Virus record (IMG/VR): IMGVR_UViG_3300008255_000406
Coordinates: 1-26,983 of that record
Reading direction: 5' to 3' (one strand)
Source: a virus
Taxonomy: Duplodnaviria; Caudoviricetes
DNA length: 26,983 bases
The notes under the pieces are model-generated. The model was not told the origin of the DNA and did not search any database. It saw nothing but the letters and a program-made list of their open reading frames with translations. Of the stretch, positions 5,152-25,349 are shown piece by piece. Positions within the stretch are counted from its first letter, which is position 1. Each line of letters starts with the position of its first letter. Made by a program: the position numbers and the translations under genes.

Positions 5152-6060
5152 TTAAGCGGCGGCTTCCACGATGGCGTAAGCACCTCTACCGTCGCTGTAC
5201 GCTTTGCTTCCACCCGCTTGCAATTCGCAAGACATGATGCGTCCAAAATGTTCAGGCCGCGGCTCGGCATCCGCCAGCACGTTAACTACTGTTTTTGATT
5301 TCCCAACAAAAGCCGGGTGGTAAGCCAGCCCCGCTTTCGCATCAGTTGCCACCGTCGCGGCGGTTGGTAGCTTCGCTACGCCAGCATCGGTGTAACGCAG
5401 CACTTCGGCACGTTTCACGATGGTAAAGCCCAACACCTCGCCCAAGATTCCCTTGTTCAGGTCAGCCAGTTTGGAGTTGAAATTTTCTTTGATATCCGCA
5501 TCAAGAAACATCCCGTTGTACATCGTGGACGGCAACAAAATTCTACGCCCGGCGGCCGGAATCTTGTCGTTATCCATGGCGGTGTGCAAGTCAACGAGGT
5601 CATTGTATGTCAGCAGCTTGCGGTTACCCGTTGCCCCGGCAAGCGAGGTCGGTTTCGCCGCTCCGCTCGTTTGCAAAATCCTTGCGGCGATTTCCGCTCT
5701 CCAAGCGTACAATATATCAAGAGCCACGCCATCTTGAATATTCATCAGCATATTAAATATAACACTCTGCATTTTGTTGTAAGACATTTGCAGTTGCTCC
5801 AAATCTCGTACCCGCTGCGGGTTACTGGTATAGTCAACCATATCGTAGCTGATGTCTCCATCAGGACGTTCCGTGATTGGTGCAGGGAAAACCGTCCGGT
5901 TACGCTCGTATCCGGTAGGTGTTCCGGCTTGCGGAATAACCACGGTTTTGATACCTGCGTTGGCGTACTCATCCCAGTTCAGCGATTCGTTCAAAAACTC
6001 ATTCGGTGCGAAGAGGTTTTCCATGATGCGGGCCATCCACATCGTTCTCAATAAAGCCAT
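5152..6060 (-). CDS. Major capsid protein
   Basis: 302 aa directly after protease/scaffold; TVVIPQAG, IPAAGRRILL, GEVLGFTI resemble HK97-fold capsids. Confidence 0.85.
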   Translation of the reverse strand: MALLRTMWMARIMENLFAPNEFLNESLNWDEYANAGIKTVVIPQAGTPTGYERNRTVFPAPITERPDGDISYDMVDYTSNPQRVRDLEQLQMSYNKMQSVIFNMLMNIQDGVALDILYAWRAEIAARILQTSGAAKPTSLAGATGNRKLLTYNDLVDLHTAMDNDKIPAAGRRILLPSTMYNGMFLDADIKENFNSKLADLNKGILGEVLGFTIVKRAEVLRYTDAGVAKLPTAATVATDAKAGLAYHPAFVGKSKTVVNVLADAEPRPEHFGRIMSCELQAGGSKAYSDGRGAYAIVEAAA

Positions 6061-6102
6061 TTTTATATCTCGTTTAAAAAGTGATAATTAGGTCAGGTAC
6101 TG

Positions 6103-7035
6103 TTACTTGCCAAATTCAGCTTCGTACAAAGCCGTGAATGCGGCCTCATCGTTCAGTTGCATATCTTGCAAGCCTTTGGAGTCTTTTTCCTGCCAGTCGC
6201 TGAATTTCCAGTCTTTTCTACCTTCGTTTGCAGAAGGCGTTTTCGCCCCTTTCTTCACAATGTCAGCAAGCGTAACGGTTTTGGGAATTGAGACCAGCGT
6301 TTTCTCGAACAACTCAAAGTTCGTGTCGGCAAGTTGTAAGAAGGTAGCTTTTGATTCTTCCTCCAGCCGACCTTCCGCAACGGCGGCGTCGCAGAGCGTC
6401 ACGGCCTTGGCCTTTTGGGCGTTTTTGGTTGCGGCTTGGAGTGCCACCAAATCATGCATCGCCTGGGCGGCATCAGCTAACGCTACGTTAACTTGTTCCT
6501 CCGTCGCCGTTTCCGGCAAGCCAAATTGTTTGGCAATTTTCTTAATGTCCATTTCTGTCTTGGAATTAGTTAATGGTTTGATTGCCGGAAAGTCGGCGAG
6601 TTCAATGGCTGATTCATCCCGAACGGGGTTGTTGTCCTTATCGTAGAGCGTAAGAGCCGAGCGGTTGGCGGGTACACTTACTATGCTTACTTCGCACAGC
6701 TCGCAGTAGGTTACCTGTATCGCCGTGGTGCCGTCTTCGAGTTTAACTTCGTAGCCCTGCACGTTCCGTATGCCAATGCTGGCGGCCTTCAAAAAACCCT
6801 TGGTAACTTTGTTCGCAATGCCTTTGGCAAAGGCATCCTCGGTATCAAAAACGGGGTCAGCCAGCAGCTTTTCGGCTTCGATACGCAGCTTCTCCCAACG
6901 CCCAATAACGTGCTTTCTGTCGTGCATATACAGCATCACGGGGTTCTCCTCAAACGCCTGCGTGTCAATCGCCGTCGTCGGGATAATCAACCGTTTGGTA
7001 TTCAGCGAGCCGTCCGAAAGAATAAAGGTTTTCAT
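6103..7035 (-). CDS. Prohead protease with C-terminal scaffold
   Basis: NPVMLYMH, IGRW, GFLKAASIG, EVSIVSVPAN motifs; helical C-terminus. Confidence 0.9.
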   Translation of the reverse strand: MKTFILSDGSLNTKRLIIPTTAIDTQAFEENPVMLYMHDRKHVIGRWEKLRIEAEKLLADPVFDTEDAFAKGIANKVTKGFLKAASIGIRNVQGYEVKLEDGTTAIQVTYCELCEVSIVSVPANRSALTLYDKDNNPVRDESAIELADFPAIKPLTNSKTEMDIKKIAKQFGLPETATEEQVNVALADAAQAMHDLVALQAATKNAQKAKAVTLCDAAVAEGRLEEESKATFLQLADTNFELFEKTLVSIPKTVTLADIVKKGAKTPSANEGRKDWKFSDWQEKDSKGLQDMQLNDEAAFTALYEAEFGK

Positions 7036-7065
7036 GTCAGGATAAATCAGTTTTTCGTGATTGCC

Positions 7066-7181
7066 TTACAAAGATGGGCGGTGAAAATGGATGCCACAAC
7101 GCAGGCTTTTACAACAAAACGCCTTTACGGGGTTATTGTAATCGGGAGGAGGAAATACGTGTTTTTAGGTGCTTACTTTTG
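7066..7181. promoter_or_regulatory. Divergent late promoter region
   Basis: TACTTTTG (+, 7174-7181) and CATCTTTG (-, ~7069-7076) -7-like boxes; TTACAA...TTGTAA inverted repeat between them. Confidence 0.5.
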
Positions 7182-7220
7182 AATCAGAAACAAACCCAAA
7201 AACACCTAATTAAGTACTGC

Positions 7221-7676
7221 ATGGCATTATCAAGAGAAGAAGCTGCTAAAGAACTATATTTTCAGGAATTTACCCAAAAAAGAATTGCTGACCTCATAGA
7301 AGTGGCCGAGCAAACCATTAGTCGCTGGGCAAAAAAAGGCAACTGGGCGGAAGAACGTGCCGAACGCATGAACTCCAAAGAATCTATCCAAAACCGGGTA
7401 CTCAAGCTCATAGACTACCAACTCTGGTGCATCGAAAAGAAAGTAACGCAGGCAATGGAGGAAGGAACGCCAACGCCAATCGACAAAGGCGAAATTGATG
7501 CCCTATCAAAACTATTTGCTGGAGTTAAGGAAAAAGAAATCGGCTTTGTGCAATCAGTCAAACTGATAACCAAATTCACCGACTACATCAACACCCAAGA
7601 CCCCAAAGTAGCCAAGGGTATCCTCAAATACGCCGACGAGTTCATCTATAAACTCAAGCACGATTACGACACCTAA
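7221..7676 (+). CDS. Terminase small subunit-like HTH protein (DUF1804 / gpP N-terminal type)
   Basis: AKELYFQEFTQKRIADLIEVAEQTISRWAKKGNW HTH; precedes terL; start moved to ATG 7221. Confidence 0.75.
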   Translation: MALSREEAAKELYFQEFTQKRIADLIEVAEQTISRWAKKGNWAEERAERMNSKESIQNRVLKLIDYQLWCIEKKVTQAMEEGTPTPIDKGEIDALSKLFAGVKEKEIGFVQSVKLITKFTDYINTQDPKVAKGILKYADEFIYKLKHDYDT

Positions 7677-9780: not shown

Positions 9781-11049
9781 ATGGCTAAAAAAAAGCAAGT
9801 TTCGCAGGTTAAACCACGGACAACCTTTCCAATCACGATTGTCCAAAAAGACAACCAACGCAAAACCCTCCAAAATTGGCGAACGGCGAAGGAAGTAGCC
9901 GAAAGCCTCTACAACCCAACCCGAAAACCGTTGGTTGATCTCTACGAAGACATCATCCTCGATACGCACCTTGACTCTACGCTCGACAAACGCCTAACGG
10001 CAATAACCAACGTGTCGTGGTCATTCCAACACGACGGCCTTGAAGTAGAGGAAGTCAAAGAACAAATCCTCAACAAACACTTCTTCGAGGAGTTGATTAC
10101 CTACATAATAGAGGCGAAATTTCACGGCCACTCGCTGATTGAAACCGACCTCCGAAAAGGGGTTATTCAGCTCATCCCACGGGAACACGTCATCCCCGAA
10201 CACCAAATCGTGGTTACCGACCCCTACATTACCAACGAGGGCGTTGATTACACCAAGCCGCCTTTCAACCGAACCACTTTCGAGGTCGGCAACGCCAAAA
10301 ACCTCGGCAAACTCTACAAAGTCGCTCCCTACGTGCTGTTAAAACGAGGCGACATCTCCGACTGGGCAACCTACTGCGAAGTATTCGGAATGCCCCTGCG
10401 GGTGGGTAAGTATGACCCCCAAATGCCCGGCAACGAAATCGCCGTAAAAAAATCGCTCGCAGAAATGGGGGCAAACGCTTGGGCAGCCATCCCGATGGGC
10501 AGCGAGTTTGAATACATTGCTGAGAGCGGAAAAACCGGAAACGATGTCTATGAACGCTTCGCAAATTTTGCTAACTCCGAAATCAGCAAGTGCATCGTCG
10601 GCCAAACCATGACCGCCGAAAACGGCAGCTCCCTGAGCCAATCAAAAGTCCACATGGAAGTGCAACAAGACATCCACCAAGCCGACCGCCGCTTCGTCGA
10701 GAAAATCCTCAACGAAAAGTTCGTGCCAATCCTCCGAGCTCAAGGCTTCAGTTTCCCCGAAGGTGCAAAATTTCAAGCCGTGGACGAGGAAGAAAGCCTC
10801 ACCAAAAAAGAGCGATTGGAGATGGACTTGAGAATCCACCAAGAAGTGGCAAACCTCCCGCTTGATTATTTCTCCGAAGAATACAACGTACCCATCGACA
10901 AAAACGCCCAACCCGTTCAGCAACAAAAGCAGAAAGAAAGCAAAGGCAAAGAAACCGAACTTGCTGATTCCTTCAGTACGACAGTTTCCCTCAAACCCCG
11001 CACCTTCTACCAAGCCTTCCTTGATTTTTTTCGCCAAGCCCCGAAGTGA
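9781..11049 (+). CDS. Portal protein (DUF935 / Mu gp29-like)
   Basis: WATYCEVFGMPLRVGKY, NSEISKCIVGQTMT, SQSKVH motifs. Confidence 0.92.
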   Translation: MAKKKQVSQVKPRTTFPITIVQKDNQRKTLQNWRTAKEVAESLYNPTRKPLVDLYEDIILDTHLDSTLDKRLTAITNVSWSFQHDGLEVEEVKEQILNKHFFEELITYIIEAKFHGHSLIETDLRKGVIQLIPREHVIPEHQIVVTDPYITNEGVDYTKPPFNRTTFEVGNAKNLGKLYKVAPYVLLKRGDISDWATYCEVFGMPLRVGKYDPQMPGNEIAVKKSLAEMGANAWAAIPMGSEFEYIAESGKTGNDVYERFANFANSEISKCIVGQTMTAENGSSLSQSKVHMEVQQDIHQADRRFVEKILNEKFVPILRAQGFSFPEGAKFQAVDEEESLTKKERLEMDLRIHQEVANLPLDYFSEEYNVPIDKNAQPVQQQKQKESKGKETELADSFSTTVSLKPRTFYQAFLDFFRQAPK

Positions 11050-12368
11050 TTGACCCCTTCGGGGCGGAACAGTCCCAACAATATAATGTACAGCTTGCAG
11101 ACGGCGGCGAAATAGTATTCACTAAACAGCTTTTAAAAGCCTTAAAAGAAGTCTATGAAAGAACCCAAAACCCAACGAACCAAGTCCTGCAAAAAGACCT
11201 GTTCGAGGTATCCTACAACGCCCTCAGCGTTGCGGTTACGCAGGGATTCGGAAACCCAAATTTCCAACGTGCCGACCTCAACTTCGTGTGGCAGTTGCAC
11301 AAATCTGCCCGGTTCTTCGTTGCCCGAAAAACCGCCCTCCAAGTAACGCAGCTCATCGGCCTCATCGCCGACGTTGACCGCGGCACTCGCCGACCGTTCC
11401 GAGAGTTCAAAAAACTGGCGAAAGGAATTGTGGGCAACTATAACCAAACGTGGCTCAAAACCGAGTACGATACCGCCGTGGCCGCCGCCCGTTCCGCCCG
11501 TGATTGGCTGACTTACGAAGCCGAAGCCGACCGCTACCCAAATATTGAGTACCTGCGGACGGTCTCCGCAGAACCCGACAAAGACCACCTCAAGTACGTC
11601 GGCATTATCAGGCCGCTTAACGACCCGTTTTGGGATACGCACCTACCACCGAGCCGCTGGAATTGCAAGTGCAGCGTCAAGAACACCGCCGCCCCAGTAA
11701 CGGAGATCCCCGCCGATATTGATGCCATTGACCCCGTCGTGCCAGCGTTCCAAAATAACCCCGGCAAAACCGCCAGCTTGTTCAATTTGCCCTATACCTC
11801 GTATGCACTTAACACCACGCAAATTCCCGATGCGGCAATTGCCAAAGAACTCAAAACCCGCATCTTGCCAGAGCTTGATATGTACATTCCGGCGTACTTA
11901 TTCCCGAACGGCGGCGAACTGATGATACATCCCGGGATAGCGGAAGAGGAATGGACTGAAAACACCTATTATGGCTCACTACTTGCCAGAAAAGGATATA
12001 AAGTTAAGCTAAGGAGGTACTCGTTTGCTGCGGGAAAAAATGTTGATGCGAGGGTGAATGGCATATTAACCGAGTTCAAAAACCCACGCTCAAATAATCC
12101 CGACCGAGTAATTAAGAATTCGGTATTTGAAGCTAATGAGCAGGGAGCTGAACACGTAATGATTGATATTTCAAAAAAGACAATTACAAAACCTGAGTTA
12201 TGGAAAGCAATTCGAGGGGCGATGATTAGGAATAACAAACCATATCACACGAATATTCAAAAAATTATACTGGTGTATGACAAAAATACCCTTGTTGAAC
12301 TGACCCGTGAAGAAATTGAAAATTACAAGGCTCTTGATAAGCTACAAAGCACGAAAAACAACCGATAG
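11046..12368 (+). CDS. MuF minor head protein with C-terminal PD-(D/E)xK-like (CdiA-CT-like) nuclease domain
   Basis: WLKTEYDTA and H...DPFW...PPSRWNCKC MuF motifs; C-terminal NVDARVNGILTEFK...EANEQGAEHVMID. Confidence 0.85.
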   Translation: MIDPFGAEQSQQYNVQLADGGEIVFTKQLLKALKEVYERTQNPTNQVLQKDLFEVSYNALSVAVTQGFGNPNFQRADLNFVWQLHKSARFFVARKTALQVTQLIGLIADVDRGTRRPFREFKKLAKGIVGNYNQTWLKTEYDTAVAAARSARDWLTYEAEADRYPNIEYLRTVSAEPDKDHLKYVGIIRPLNDPFWDTHLPPSRWNCKCSVKNTAAPVTEIPADIDAIDPVVPAFQNNPGKTASLFNLPYTSYALNTTQIPDAAIAKELKTRILPELDMYIPAYLFPNGGELMIHPGIAEEEWTENTYYGSLLARKGYKVKLRRYSFAAGKNVDARVNGILTEFKNPRSNNPDRVIKNSVFEANEQGAEHVMIDISKKTITKPELWKAIRGAMIRNNKPYHTNIQKIILVYDKNTLVELTREEIENYKALDKLQSTKNNR

Positions 12369-12422
12369 GCTGTTTTTCGTGTAGGAAGCGGTGAGGCAGT
12401 GCCCTTCCGCATCACAAATATA
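12345..12422 (-). ncRNA. Putative small RNA (promoter plus terminator) convergent with the muF 3' end
   Basis: TATATTTG box at 12422-12415; hairpin CACGAAAAACA...TGTTTTTCGTG at 12350-12381 spanning the muF stop codon. Confidence 0.5.
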
Positions 12423-12433
12423 ACACATAATTT

Positions 12434-12610
12434 ATGATTCCTGAAACACCTACCGAAATAGTTGAATTCATGCTCAACTACGTCAGCGAAACCGAAGCCA
12501 AACAAATCATTGAAAAGCGAATCACGGAACTGAAACAACAACCCCAACACGCTGAAGAACTGGAGTTCTTCCAAAACGTACAAAAACAACTTAACAACAA
12601 TGAAACTTAA
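12434..12610 (+). CDS. 58 aa acidic helical hypothetical protein
   Basis: Manual translation MIPETPTEIVEFMLNYVSETEAKQIIEKRITELKQQPQHAEELEFFQNVQKQLNNNET; below ORF-track cutoff. Confidence 0.6.
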   Translation: MIPETPTEIVEFMLNYVSETEAKQIIEKRITELKQQPQHAEELEFFQNVQKQLNNNET

Positions 12611-12892
12611 CGTAACTGAAATCAAAAACGACTTTATGAAAAATAGAATAGAATTTGAAGAAATGGGCTTGCTGAATATTAGAAAAACAGGCTTTTCATT
12701 CATCGCTGTAAGGGTAAAGAGAAACATGAAGCATGTAAAACCTGAATTTAAAGGCATGAAAGAACTCATTATGAGGTCATTTCTTGGCTTTTACAATACC
12801 GAAGAAAGGGTAAGGATTCACGTTGCTTTTTGTATGTGGGAAATAAAAAAACAACAACGAAACTCAACGTAACTGAAATCAAAAACGACTTT
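12593..12892. repeat. 43-bp direct repeat pair (12593-12635, 12850-12892)
   Basis: AACAACAAYGAAACTYAACGTAACTGAAATCAAAAACGACTTT, 2 mismatches. Confidence 0.9.
12600..12872 (+). CDS. Hypothetical AT-rich ORF bracketed by a direct repeat
   Basis: 90 aa ORF starting inside repeat copy 1 and ending inside copy 2. Confidence 0.45.
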   Translation: MKLNVTEIKNDFMKNRIEFEEMGLLNIRKTGFSFIAVRVKRNMKHVKPEFKGMKELIMRSFLGFYNTEERVRIHVAFCMWEIKKQQRNST

Positions 12893-12910
12893 TATAGGGT
12901 CGAATCAAAG

Positions 12911-13002
12911 CATCCCTCACCCCTCATCCCTCATCCCTCATCCCTCATCCCTCATTCCTCACCCCTCATCCCTCATCCCTCATCCCTCACCCCCTCACCC
13001 CT
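12911..13002. repeat. Heptamer tandem repeat (CAYCCCT), about 13 units
   Basis: Directly visible; ends 5 nt before ATG 13008. Confidence 0.95.
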
Positions 13003-13007
13003 AAAAC

Positions 13008-13541
13008 ATGGACTTATCCCAATTCCTCGCCCTCAAAACCGCCGAACTCACCCGCTACATTCAGCAGGATGCCCCCCGCATTATTGCCAAAGAAGGGCGG
13101 GACCACTTCCGGGAATCTTTCCAAGACGAAGGCTTCACCGATGCAACAATTGAGCCGTGGGCCGAAGTAAAACGCCGACAAGAAGACCGCTTGCGGCGAA
13201 ACAAAAACGGCACCATTTCAAAACGCCAGGGCAGGAATCAGAAACGCAAAATCTTGACCGACACCGGAGACCTCCGAAAGTCAATCACCACCGACATTCG
13301 GGGCATGACCGTCGAAGTAGGCACAGACCTGGACTACGCCGAGCCGCACAATGAAGGGTTTAAAGGTACGGTAACCATCCGGGCACACGAAAGGACAAGA
13401 AACGGTAATAGTCATTCGGTGCAATCTTACAGTCGGGACGTTGATTTAAAACAACGCCAGTTCATCGGTGAAAGCCGTGCCTTGGATGAAAAAATAGAAC
13501 GCCAATTTGAACAAGACATCACCAAAATATTAAGCCAATAA
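13008..13541 (+). CDS. Phage virion morphogenesis protein (Mu gpG / tail-completion type)
   Basis: ILTDTGDLRKSI, YAEPHNEG, RQFIGES motifs. Confidence 0.88.
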   Translation: MDLSQFLALKTAELTRYIQQDAPRIIAKEGRDHFRESFQDEGFTDATIEPWAEVKRRQEDRLRRNKNGTISKRQGRNQKRKILTDTGDLRKSITTDIRGMTVEVGTDLDYAEPHNEGFKGTVTIRAHERTRNGNSHSVQSYSRDVDLKQRQFIGESRALDEKIERQFEQDITKILSQ

Positions 13542-15110: not shown

Positions 15111-15287
15111 ATGGAAAAATTCACAGCTCTCCAAACCCAATTAGCGGCCATCGAAGCCGATGCAAAGAAGTTCTACCTCGATGGCAACAAAGCCGCCGGC
15201 ACCAGGGTCCGCAACGGCCTCAACCAACTCCGCAAAGATGCCCAAGAGGTTAGGTTCGACATCCAACGCATCAAAAACGAAGCCTAA
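15111..15287 (+). CDS. Histone H1-like protein (Hc1 family, short Bacteroidota form)
   Basis: Manual translation MEKFTALQTQLAAIEADAKKFYLDGNKAAGTRVRNGLNQLRKDAQEVRFDIQRIKNEA; GNKAAGTRVR signature; below ORF-track cutoff. Confidence 0.88.
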   Translation: MEKFTALQTQLAAIEADAKKFYLDGNKAAGTRVRNGLNQLRKDAQEVRFDIQRIKNEA

Positions 15288-25267: not shown

Positions 25268-25296
25268 ATTTGCAAAGTGTTTTATTGATTACACGA

Positions 25297-25349
25297 CAAA
25301 CATATTAGTAAATGTTCTAATTTACAAACATTATTAGTATAAATTCTAA
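25297..25349. promoter_or_regulatory. Early leftward promoter and two operators
   Basis: Minus strand TTTG (25328-25325), 20 nt, TATGTTTG (25304-25297); TTAGTA-N4-TTCTAA at 25305-25320 and 25334-25349. Confidence 0.72.

Follow-up and report, generated by a model that had tools for sequence, protein, structure and literature searches.

What would neutralise a predicted nuclease that a phage builds into its own head protein? The question is raised by the muF gene of a Mu-like phage fragment, virus record IMGVR_UViG_3300008255_000406, whose 26,983 nucleotides were analysed at full length and are called the window below. The C-terminal extension of its MuF protein is a predicted nuclease, and a promoter box on the opposite strand points at the muF stop codon. 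The original prediction took this arrangement for a candidate toxin with an RNA antitoxin, made in the lysogen and acting either by antisense pairing or by direct binding. Here, comparison with homologous loci indicates that a module of toxin and small RNA is real and widespread in related phages and bacteria, and that its RNA quite probably has an antitoxin role in one mode or the other. Of the two modes, direct binding is favoured on comparative grounds: at a probability of about 0.55, the RNA of this phage would bind and inhibit the nuclease tail and thereby serve as its immunity factor.

The MuF tail is a predicted CdiA_C-like nuclease

The protein joins a MuF domain in the head module to an exchangeable toxin domain, as MuF polymorphic toxins do. 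Residues 132–211 match Phage_Mu_F (PF04233; E 1.5e-6; 29.3 bits, slightly below the cut-off of 29.6) and also phrog_220, and related MuFs bear exchangeable tails, among them deamidase, LPD3 and others. The AT-richer extension noticed originally appears as a drop in GC from 0.55–0.59 to 0.35–0.45 in the C-terminal part of muF, and the nuclease-like motif within it reads D334...E343-F-K345...Q366. The profile and structure searches proposed at the time agree on one fold. Pfam CdiA_C (PF18451) matches residues 331–410 (E 6e-6; 26.8 bits, cut-off 26.6), a profile search with the tail finds 4G6V (E 7.7e-6), and the predicted structure (pLDDT 94) has 4G6V as its best Foldseek match (E 2e-6); a VIA structure comparison with 4G6V gives Z 11.1 and rmsd 3.1 for 122 aligned residues, the next match having Z 6.5. 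Judged by this model, the tail has the fold of the CdiA-CT toxin of strain 1026b. The likely catalytic residues, assigned by motif, are E302, D334, E343 and K345, and the D/E and K columns are conserved among homologous tails. The 4G6V toxin cleaves tRNA-Ala at the acceptor stem, and since some members of the same fold are DNases (PMC9086364), cleavage of tRNA by the MuF tail is predicted by analogy.

The proteins closest to this MuF are P0002–P0004 (56–65%), and the nearest named relative is from Arcicella (45% identity over residues 16–430). The phage with the nearest toxin for which DNA was found, L007, has a MuF that is 66% identical overall and 37% identical in the tail; the toxin of L084 is next-nearest. 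In protein scans of viral and metagenome contigs every match came from the window phage, and no match to it was found among GenBank phages.

A reverse promoter box stands behind nuclease-type tails

Because the named relatives of the window are mostly Bacteroidota, the Bacteroidota promoter consensus TAnnTTTG (PMC7366714) is the right promoter model here; a sigma-70 scan was uninformative for the presumed Bacteroidota host. The reverse box was placed correctly in the original prediction and reads TATATTTG on the minus strand, and the −33 element was rightly called weak, since TTTC matches three of the four positions. The box pattern occurs 17 times in the window, counting both strands, and by itself is not beyond chance; its position behind the toxin exceeds chance across homologues.

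We compared 130 toxin or MuF ends, drawn from MuF relatives and from CdiA_C-like domains of sampled Bacteroidota genomes (where such domains were found in 24/401, 5/401, 33/351 and 6/401). Grouping was by Pfam for 97 of these ends and otherwise partly by eye; set aside were nine genes that are broken or split, five MuFs of non-Bacteroidota or unknown host and two other MuFs, none of which has the box. The reverse promoter and structured RNA, which the original prediction had proposed to seek beside homologous toxins, do accompany them: a reverse box lies 30–110 nt after the stop codon of 73 of the 80 CdiA_C-like domains (5.8 expected from shuffles), a count whose rows are not independent events because many are close kin. 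Several of the seven misses keep hairpins and a degenerate box. The same test finds the box behind all seven BECR/LPD3-like tails, one of eight short MuFs, none of ten non-nuclease MuF tails (papain-deamidase, peptidase-like or unassigned) and none of nine long non-MuF proteins (toxins).

Behind non-nuclease tails the place of the RNA is taken by a small ORF. In eight of the ten non-nuclease MuFs the box stands 4–35 nt before a convergent ORF of 76–84 aa that ends at the toxin stop, and the remaining two have convergent ORFs as well. Behind five non-MuF CdiA_C toxins there is no box, and an ORF on the same strand stands at the stop. The small ORFs that accompany MuF deamidases of Bacteroidales have been proposed, from structure models, to encode immunity proteins, and Bxa is described as having proven ones (PMC11699363). 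Because the same box precedes the convergent ORFs, the RNA fills the apparent immunity slot, and a nuclease tail is therefore paired with either a small protein gene or an RNA. At most MuF loci with the RNA the next structural gene follows at once, and in Cytophagales genomes the stand-alone domains retain the RNA, mostly with no small ORF behind the box.

Among the stand-alone domains, the Spirosomataceae loci L118, L119, L121 and L291 consist of a nuclease of 160–175 aa and the RNA, and several of them adjoin what is presumably the 3′ end of uvrB. Two cassettes stand in tandem at L291 and at L116. Possibly these Spirosomataceae cassettes are chromosomal toxin-antitoxin or abortive-infection modules. 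Toxin genes with stops or frameshifts occur at L289, L302, L303 and L125; the RNA unit persists at the first three and is duplicated beside the broken gene at L303. MuFs with PBECR2 tails from non-Bacteroidota or unknown hosts (L110, L111 and L148) have no box, and the GC-rich non-coding stretches that follow L110 and L111 could encode an RNA of this kind, made from a different promoter.

The predicted RNA carries the marks of a gene and varies with the toxin

In the 80 homologues, selected by the box only, a pyrimidine is found at offset 3 in 74 and a purine at offset 4 in 77. A pyrimidine at −1 followed by a purine at +1 is the signature of a start site, and +1 was therefore placed at 12410 in the window. 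The −33 distance is occupied by a T-rich run that for most homologues ends in G. The +1 base is paired in 62/80 folds, and the whole unit folds with z < −2 in 71/80 cases vs 3/80 in-gene controls (22/80 for the first 30 nt alone). Covariation is clearest in a Spirosomataceae-rich subfamily of solo domains (23 sequences, 20 distinct), in which the 5′ part folds into a hairpin of 9 bp, capped in most cases by a GNRA loop: double changes are found in 7/9 pairs (0/500 shuffles), and covariation reaches 0.49 vs at most 0.13 in slid controls. Across homologues, similarity of the RNA 5′ part rises with that of the toxin (rho 0.27; 0/500 permutations; upstream spacer control −0.12), and the co-variation of RNA and toxin originally suggested as a check is thus seen at the level of the homologues, with a contribution from linkage; the stem covariation of the window RNA itself falls short of significance (see below). 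Among further homologues, the RNAs of L089, L096 and L016 have a stem with a 7-nt loop (CUGCGAA, CCGCGAA; UUGGUAU resembling Thr-GGU), and L131, L132 and L143 have a CAUAA-containing loop in common.

In the window itself, the long hairpin that had been seen to overlap the muF stop holds up well: on the minus strand it folds at −31.9 kcal/mol (z −5.95; 0/200 shuffles). Its counterparts in homologues, L007 included, have other sequences, and it is likely a terminator or 3′ protector. The 5′ hairpin (z −2.57), a candidate for the toxin-binding part by its comparison with L007, is followed by UUCC (12387–12384). The window and L007 RNAs align without gaps, each with a 23-nt hairpin around GGY-ACU-GCC and then UUCC, and 7/7 pairs are kept, three of them through a double change (n=2). 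Of the two competing pairings read into the 5′ part by the original prediction, GCGG/CCGC is kept in L007; GGAAG/CUUCC cannot form there and, not being conserved, was dropped as a switch. As for a pseudoknot, simple hairpins account for the covariation, and a potentially crossing alternative pairing is not kept in L007.

Scans for further copies of the window RNA by a loose pattern gave 120 loci, none with a toxin upstream; a tighter scan gave 52 viral and four genome hits, and among them the outer stem together with the toxin was seen only in L007 and in three copies of the window phage. A look-alike at L240/L271, which falls within unrelated coding sequence, was discarded. Rfam gave only sub-threshold hits in the window and no matches in 20 related loci, and no match to a tRNA anticodon arm was found for the window RNA.

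Anticodon-arm look-alikes, tandem units and an orphan unit

The LPD3-tailed MuFs form a sister class with the box at 42 of 43 distinct loci. In 39/42 folds made without selection an apical stem carries a 7-nt loop of UUGYAKY type, and among the distinct proteins 50/54 are accompanied by a 7-nt GGA-UUGYAKY-UCC-type loop and 4/54 by an 8-nt variant. Within the loop GUA and GCA interchange at least three times on the tree, and the stem covaries at 5/6 pairs, in 24 windows whose choice by loop pattern and fold favours pairing. The RNA of these phages (L342–L421) is a single long hairpin topped by a look-alike of the Tyr/Cys anticodon arm, which resembles the Arcicella tRNA-Tyr arm GCAGA-CUGUAAC-UCUGC. 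From this likeness LPD3 (PF18798) is predicted to be an anticodon nuclease; at E ≤ 0.001 a fold search with LPD3 gave no match. BECR nucleases are classified in a 2026 bioRxiv preprint, which may bear on LPD3.

RNA units also occur in numbers and combinations of their own. They are tandem at L284, L303, L355 and L357, and at L396/L397 a 45-nt unit typical of the unrelated L071 toxin follows the LPD3 stop, ahead of the locus's own unit. The L396 record (97% complete) holds no L071-type toxin, and this orphan RNA unit, one event, parallels orphan immunity genes and is a candidate for RNA poly-immunity.

Direct binding and its alternatives

How might such an RNA act? We propose that the convergent promoter makes an RNA of about 65 nt whose fold binds the nuclease and keeps it inactive, in the role of an immunity gene. 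Binding would fall to its 5′ hairpin, specific to the toxin and similar to the substrate (in the LPD3 class the binding part looks like a tRNA anticodon arm), and its 3′ hairpin would be the terminator. A host housekeeping promoter opposed to the late operon would presumably keep the RNA present in the lysogen, where it would protect from toxin made in assembly or brought by sibling virions.

The convergent geometry by itself suggests another mode, in which the RNA anneals to muF mRNA at its 3′ end, triggers decay of the message and silences leaky toxin expression. About 23 nt of the RNA lie within the end of the muF coding region, complementarity to a read-through mRNA is full, and 3′-end pairing with RNase III decay is established for txpA/RatA, bsrG/SR4 and yonT/SR6 of Bacillus (PMC6562991). 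However, a cis antisense RNA is complementary by construction and so needs neither a toxin-specific fold nor an anticodon-like loop, nor tandem or orphan copies. Behind non-nuclease toxins the same promoter slot is occupied by protein genes, and antisense RNA would presumably be powerless against toxin delivered as protein. Pairing to the muF start region does not exceed shuffles (−18.3 vs −18.5 ± 3.7), and in a search for a trans antisense target within the window the best duplex, −37.7, was equalled by 3/12 shuffles. We consider antisense pairing improbable as the mode of action, and direct binding is favoured by toxin-specific folds and loops, tandem units and the orphan unit.

A second alternative accepts the RNA and gives it other work: as cofactor, guide or activator of the nuclease, as a decoy for tRNases of host or rivals, or as a promoter-terminator element that dampens late transcription. 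The orphan unit and the anticodon look-alikes would fit a decoy against foreign nucleases too, and non-tRNA targets have been suggested for phage BECR domains by Iyer et al. (PMC5512222). Yet the RNA occupies the slot that otherwise holds the convergent small ORF, and at most MuF loci with the RNA there is no other immunity candidate. The element is found behind only one of the eight short MuFs of the same operon, and its rarity there argues against general late-operon control. A role of this kind appears unlikely, if somewhat less so than antisense.

The least probable alternative, in our judgement, is a classical pair of MuF toxin and immunity protein, in which the 58-aa ORF downstream would protect and the RNA would be secondary. 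This ORF is kept in L007, the phage with the nearest toxin, but among 422 loci it occurs in the window phage and L007 only, has no homologues past L007, is missing beside the L084 toxin, and is less diverged between the two phages (59%) than the toxin (37%). The ORF is on the late strand, and no promoter specific to it was identified. At L087, L090, L096 and L098 one small ORF at this place is common to different toxin types, so that a small ORF there follows the backbone rather than the toxin, and the 58-aa ORF may be backbone cargo.

Several observations weigh against direct binding and immunity by the RNA, beginning with its evidence in this phage. The window RNA has one distinct relative (L007), covariation with that relative is not significant (70/500), and both phages of the subfamily have the 58-aa ORF. 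Mimicry of a tRNA acceptor stem by the window RNA is not above shuffled stems (p 0.89) and is at chance overall, with 2/80 RNAs below 0.05, although most RNAs of the Spirosomataceae subfamily score best against tRNA-Asp. The anticodon look-alike belongs to LPD3, a toxin class other than that of the window, and the top match of LPD3, the BECR tRNase 6CP9, is weak (E 0.048). Linkage explains part of the co-variation of RNA and toxin, toxin classes were set partly by eye after the data were seen, and antisense action is always possible because the late mRNA would be fully complementary to the RNA.

If the RNA does bind the nuclease, then nuclease-type MuF toxins that seem to have no immunity would be covered by RNAs of 25–65 nt that annotation has missed, and the RNA would point to the substrate of its toxin; for LPD3, a domain whose function is unknown, these would be Tyr/Cys anticodons. 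More broadly, each polymorphic tRNase family of Bacteroidota could be paired with its own minimal tRNA-like decoy, an anticodon arm or a helix end made from a convergent promoter, with tandem and orphan units as poly-immunity arrays against the toxins of rival phages. Such an undescribed class of RNA immunity is a tentative extension, which we rate at slightly less than even odds. With dozens of natural toxin-RNA pairs, the tandem units and the orphan unit, short synthetic RNAs would allow a direct test of cognate specificity.

Genomic setting in the phage

The window, 27 kb of a Mu-like phage whose virus record is 53% complete, has genes for a transposase-like protein, a MuB-like ATPase, terminase, Gp36, portal, MuF and virion morphogenesis (see the table for the features around muF).

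Table 1. Positions of the promoter, the predicted RNA and the neighbouring genes in the window
Feature	Position	Strand	Remarks
Portal gene	9781-11049		Portal_Mu match; overlaps muF start
muF, minor head protein with C-terminal toxin extension	11046-12368	+	440 aa, GTG start
CdiA_C-like PD-(D/E)xK nuclease domain, predicted tRNase	11880-12368	+	MuF residues ~279-440
Predicted small RNA, ~65 nt, two hairpins	12346-12410	-	Presumed +1 is G12410; 3′ end uncertain, weak U-tail
3′ hairpin, 14 bp	12350-12381	-	muF stop codon (12366-12368) in and beside the loop
5′ module, 23-nt hairpin	12388-12410	-	4-bp outer stem, internal loop, inner stem, ACU loop
Bacteroidota -7 box TATATTTG (TAnnTTTG)	12415-12422	-	Position conserved among homologues; points toward muF stop
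Weak -33 element TTTC	12443-12446	-	3/4 matches; 20 nt upstream of the box, within the start of the 58-aa ORF
58-aa ORF, rival immunity candidate	12434-12610	+	59% identity to the L007 ORF
Virion morphogenesis gene	13008-13541		Phage_tail_S match; muF sits between portal and this gene

Downstream of the 58-aa ORF lies an AT-rich ORF of 90 aa (12600–12872) that belongs to no family, with an unrelated 69-aa ORF in its place in L007; its first ~35 bases are repeated near the ORF end (12849–12894), in the manner of an insertion scar. Just 5′ of the morphogenesis gene the 7-bp repeat CATCCCT occurs 13 times (12911–13002), and none is found at the matching place in L007. Elsewhere in the window, the minus strand encodes the capsid and prohead protease (5152–7676), in divergent orientation to the block of terminase, portal and muF, and a Histone H1-like Hc1 protein (PF07432, E 5e-19) is encoded at 15111–15287 (+). 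Further reverse TAnnTTTG boxes are found at 25290–25304, 16740 and 15383; the box at 25297 is 30 nt before a 76-aa ORF that faces a putative repressor.

Comparison with known systems

Accounts of immunity to polymorphic toxins speak of proteins, and the RNA antitoxins known to bind a protein come from three type III families. In our literature search, from which most subscription journals were absent, no description of RNA immunity for MuF, CdiA_C or LPD3 toxins was found. The window toxin resembles the MuF polymorphic toxins of temperate phages (Jamet et al. 2017, PMC5576092; Bxa/Bsi/BAH and Apk2 in PMC11699363) in its MuF N-terminus, its swappable tail, its locus between portal and morphogenesis genes and the protective element adjoining the toxin end; however, the immunity factors described for them are proteins, whereas here a non-coding unit of about 65 nt stands behind the same promoter box. 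By profile and fold the best match of the tail is CdiA-CT/CdiI of Burkholderia pseudomallei 1026b (4G6V, PF18451), which is delivered by CdiA and neutralised by a protein, whereas the window toxin is part of a phage head protein; at 16–19% identity, the target of CdiA-CT 1026b is not transferable to it.

Like the convergent type I systems of Bacillus subtilis, txpA/RatA, bsrG/SR4 and yonT/SR6, the window has an RNA that faces and overlaps a toxin 3′ end, there in prophages; the toxins of those systems are described as mostly small hydrophobic peptides and the RNAs as acting by base-pairing (PMC6562991). In the window the likeness is one of geometry, the overlap with the muF stop, but the toxin is a nuclease domain of a 440-aa protein and the RNA fold is conserved by toxin family. 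Phage tRNAs reportedly neutralise anticodon nucleases such as AriB of PARIS, and there, too, a phage RNA with tRNA features opposes a tRNA nuclease; those RNAs, however, are full tRNAs against a host defence, whereas here minimal hairpins stand beside the phage's own toxin.

Closest in action, under our preferred explanation, would be the type III systems ToxIN, CptIN and TenpIN, in which a structured RNA keeps an RNase in check and the two vary together, and whose described architecture is an upstream same-strand repeat array followed by a terminator, a pseudoknotted RNA and a MazF/Kid-like toxin (PMC3401426). Tandem units in some relatives of the window RNA add to the likeness. Unlike type III, the window RNA is downstream, convergent, under its own promoter and mostly a single hairpin unit, there is no tandem array upstream of muF, where portal overlaps the muF start, and the toxin domain is CdiA_C with a PD-(D/E)xK fold rather than of ToxN/CptN/TenpN type. 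The module would work like type III while differing from both type III and type I in the features tested, and would depart from the known MuF toxins in its immunity factor.
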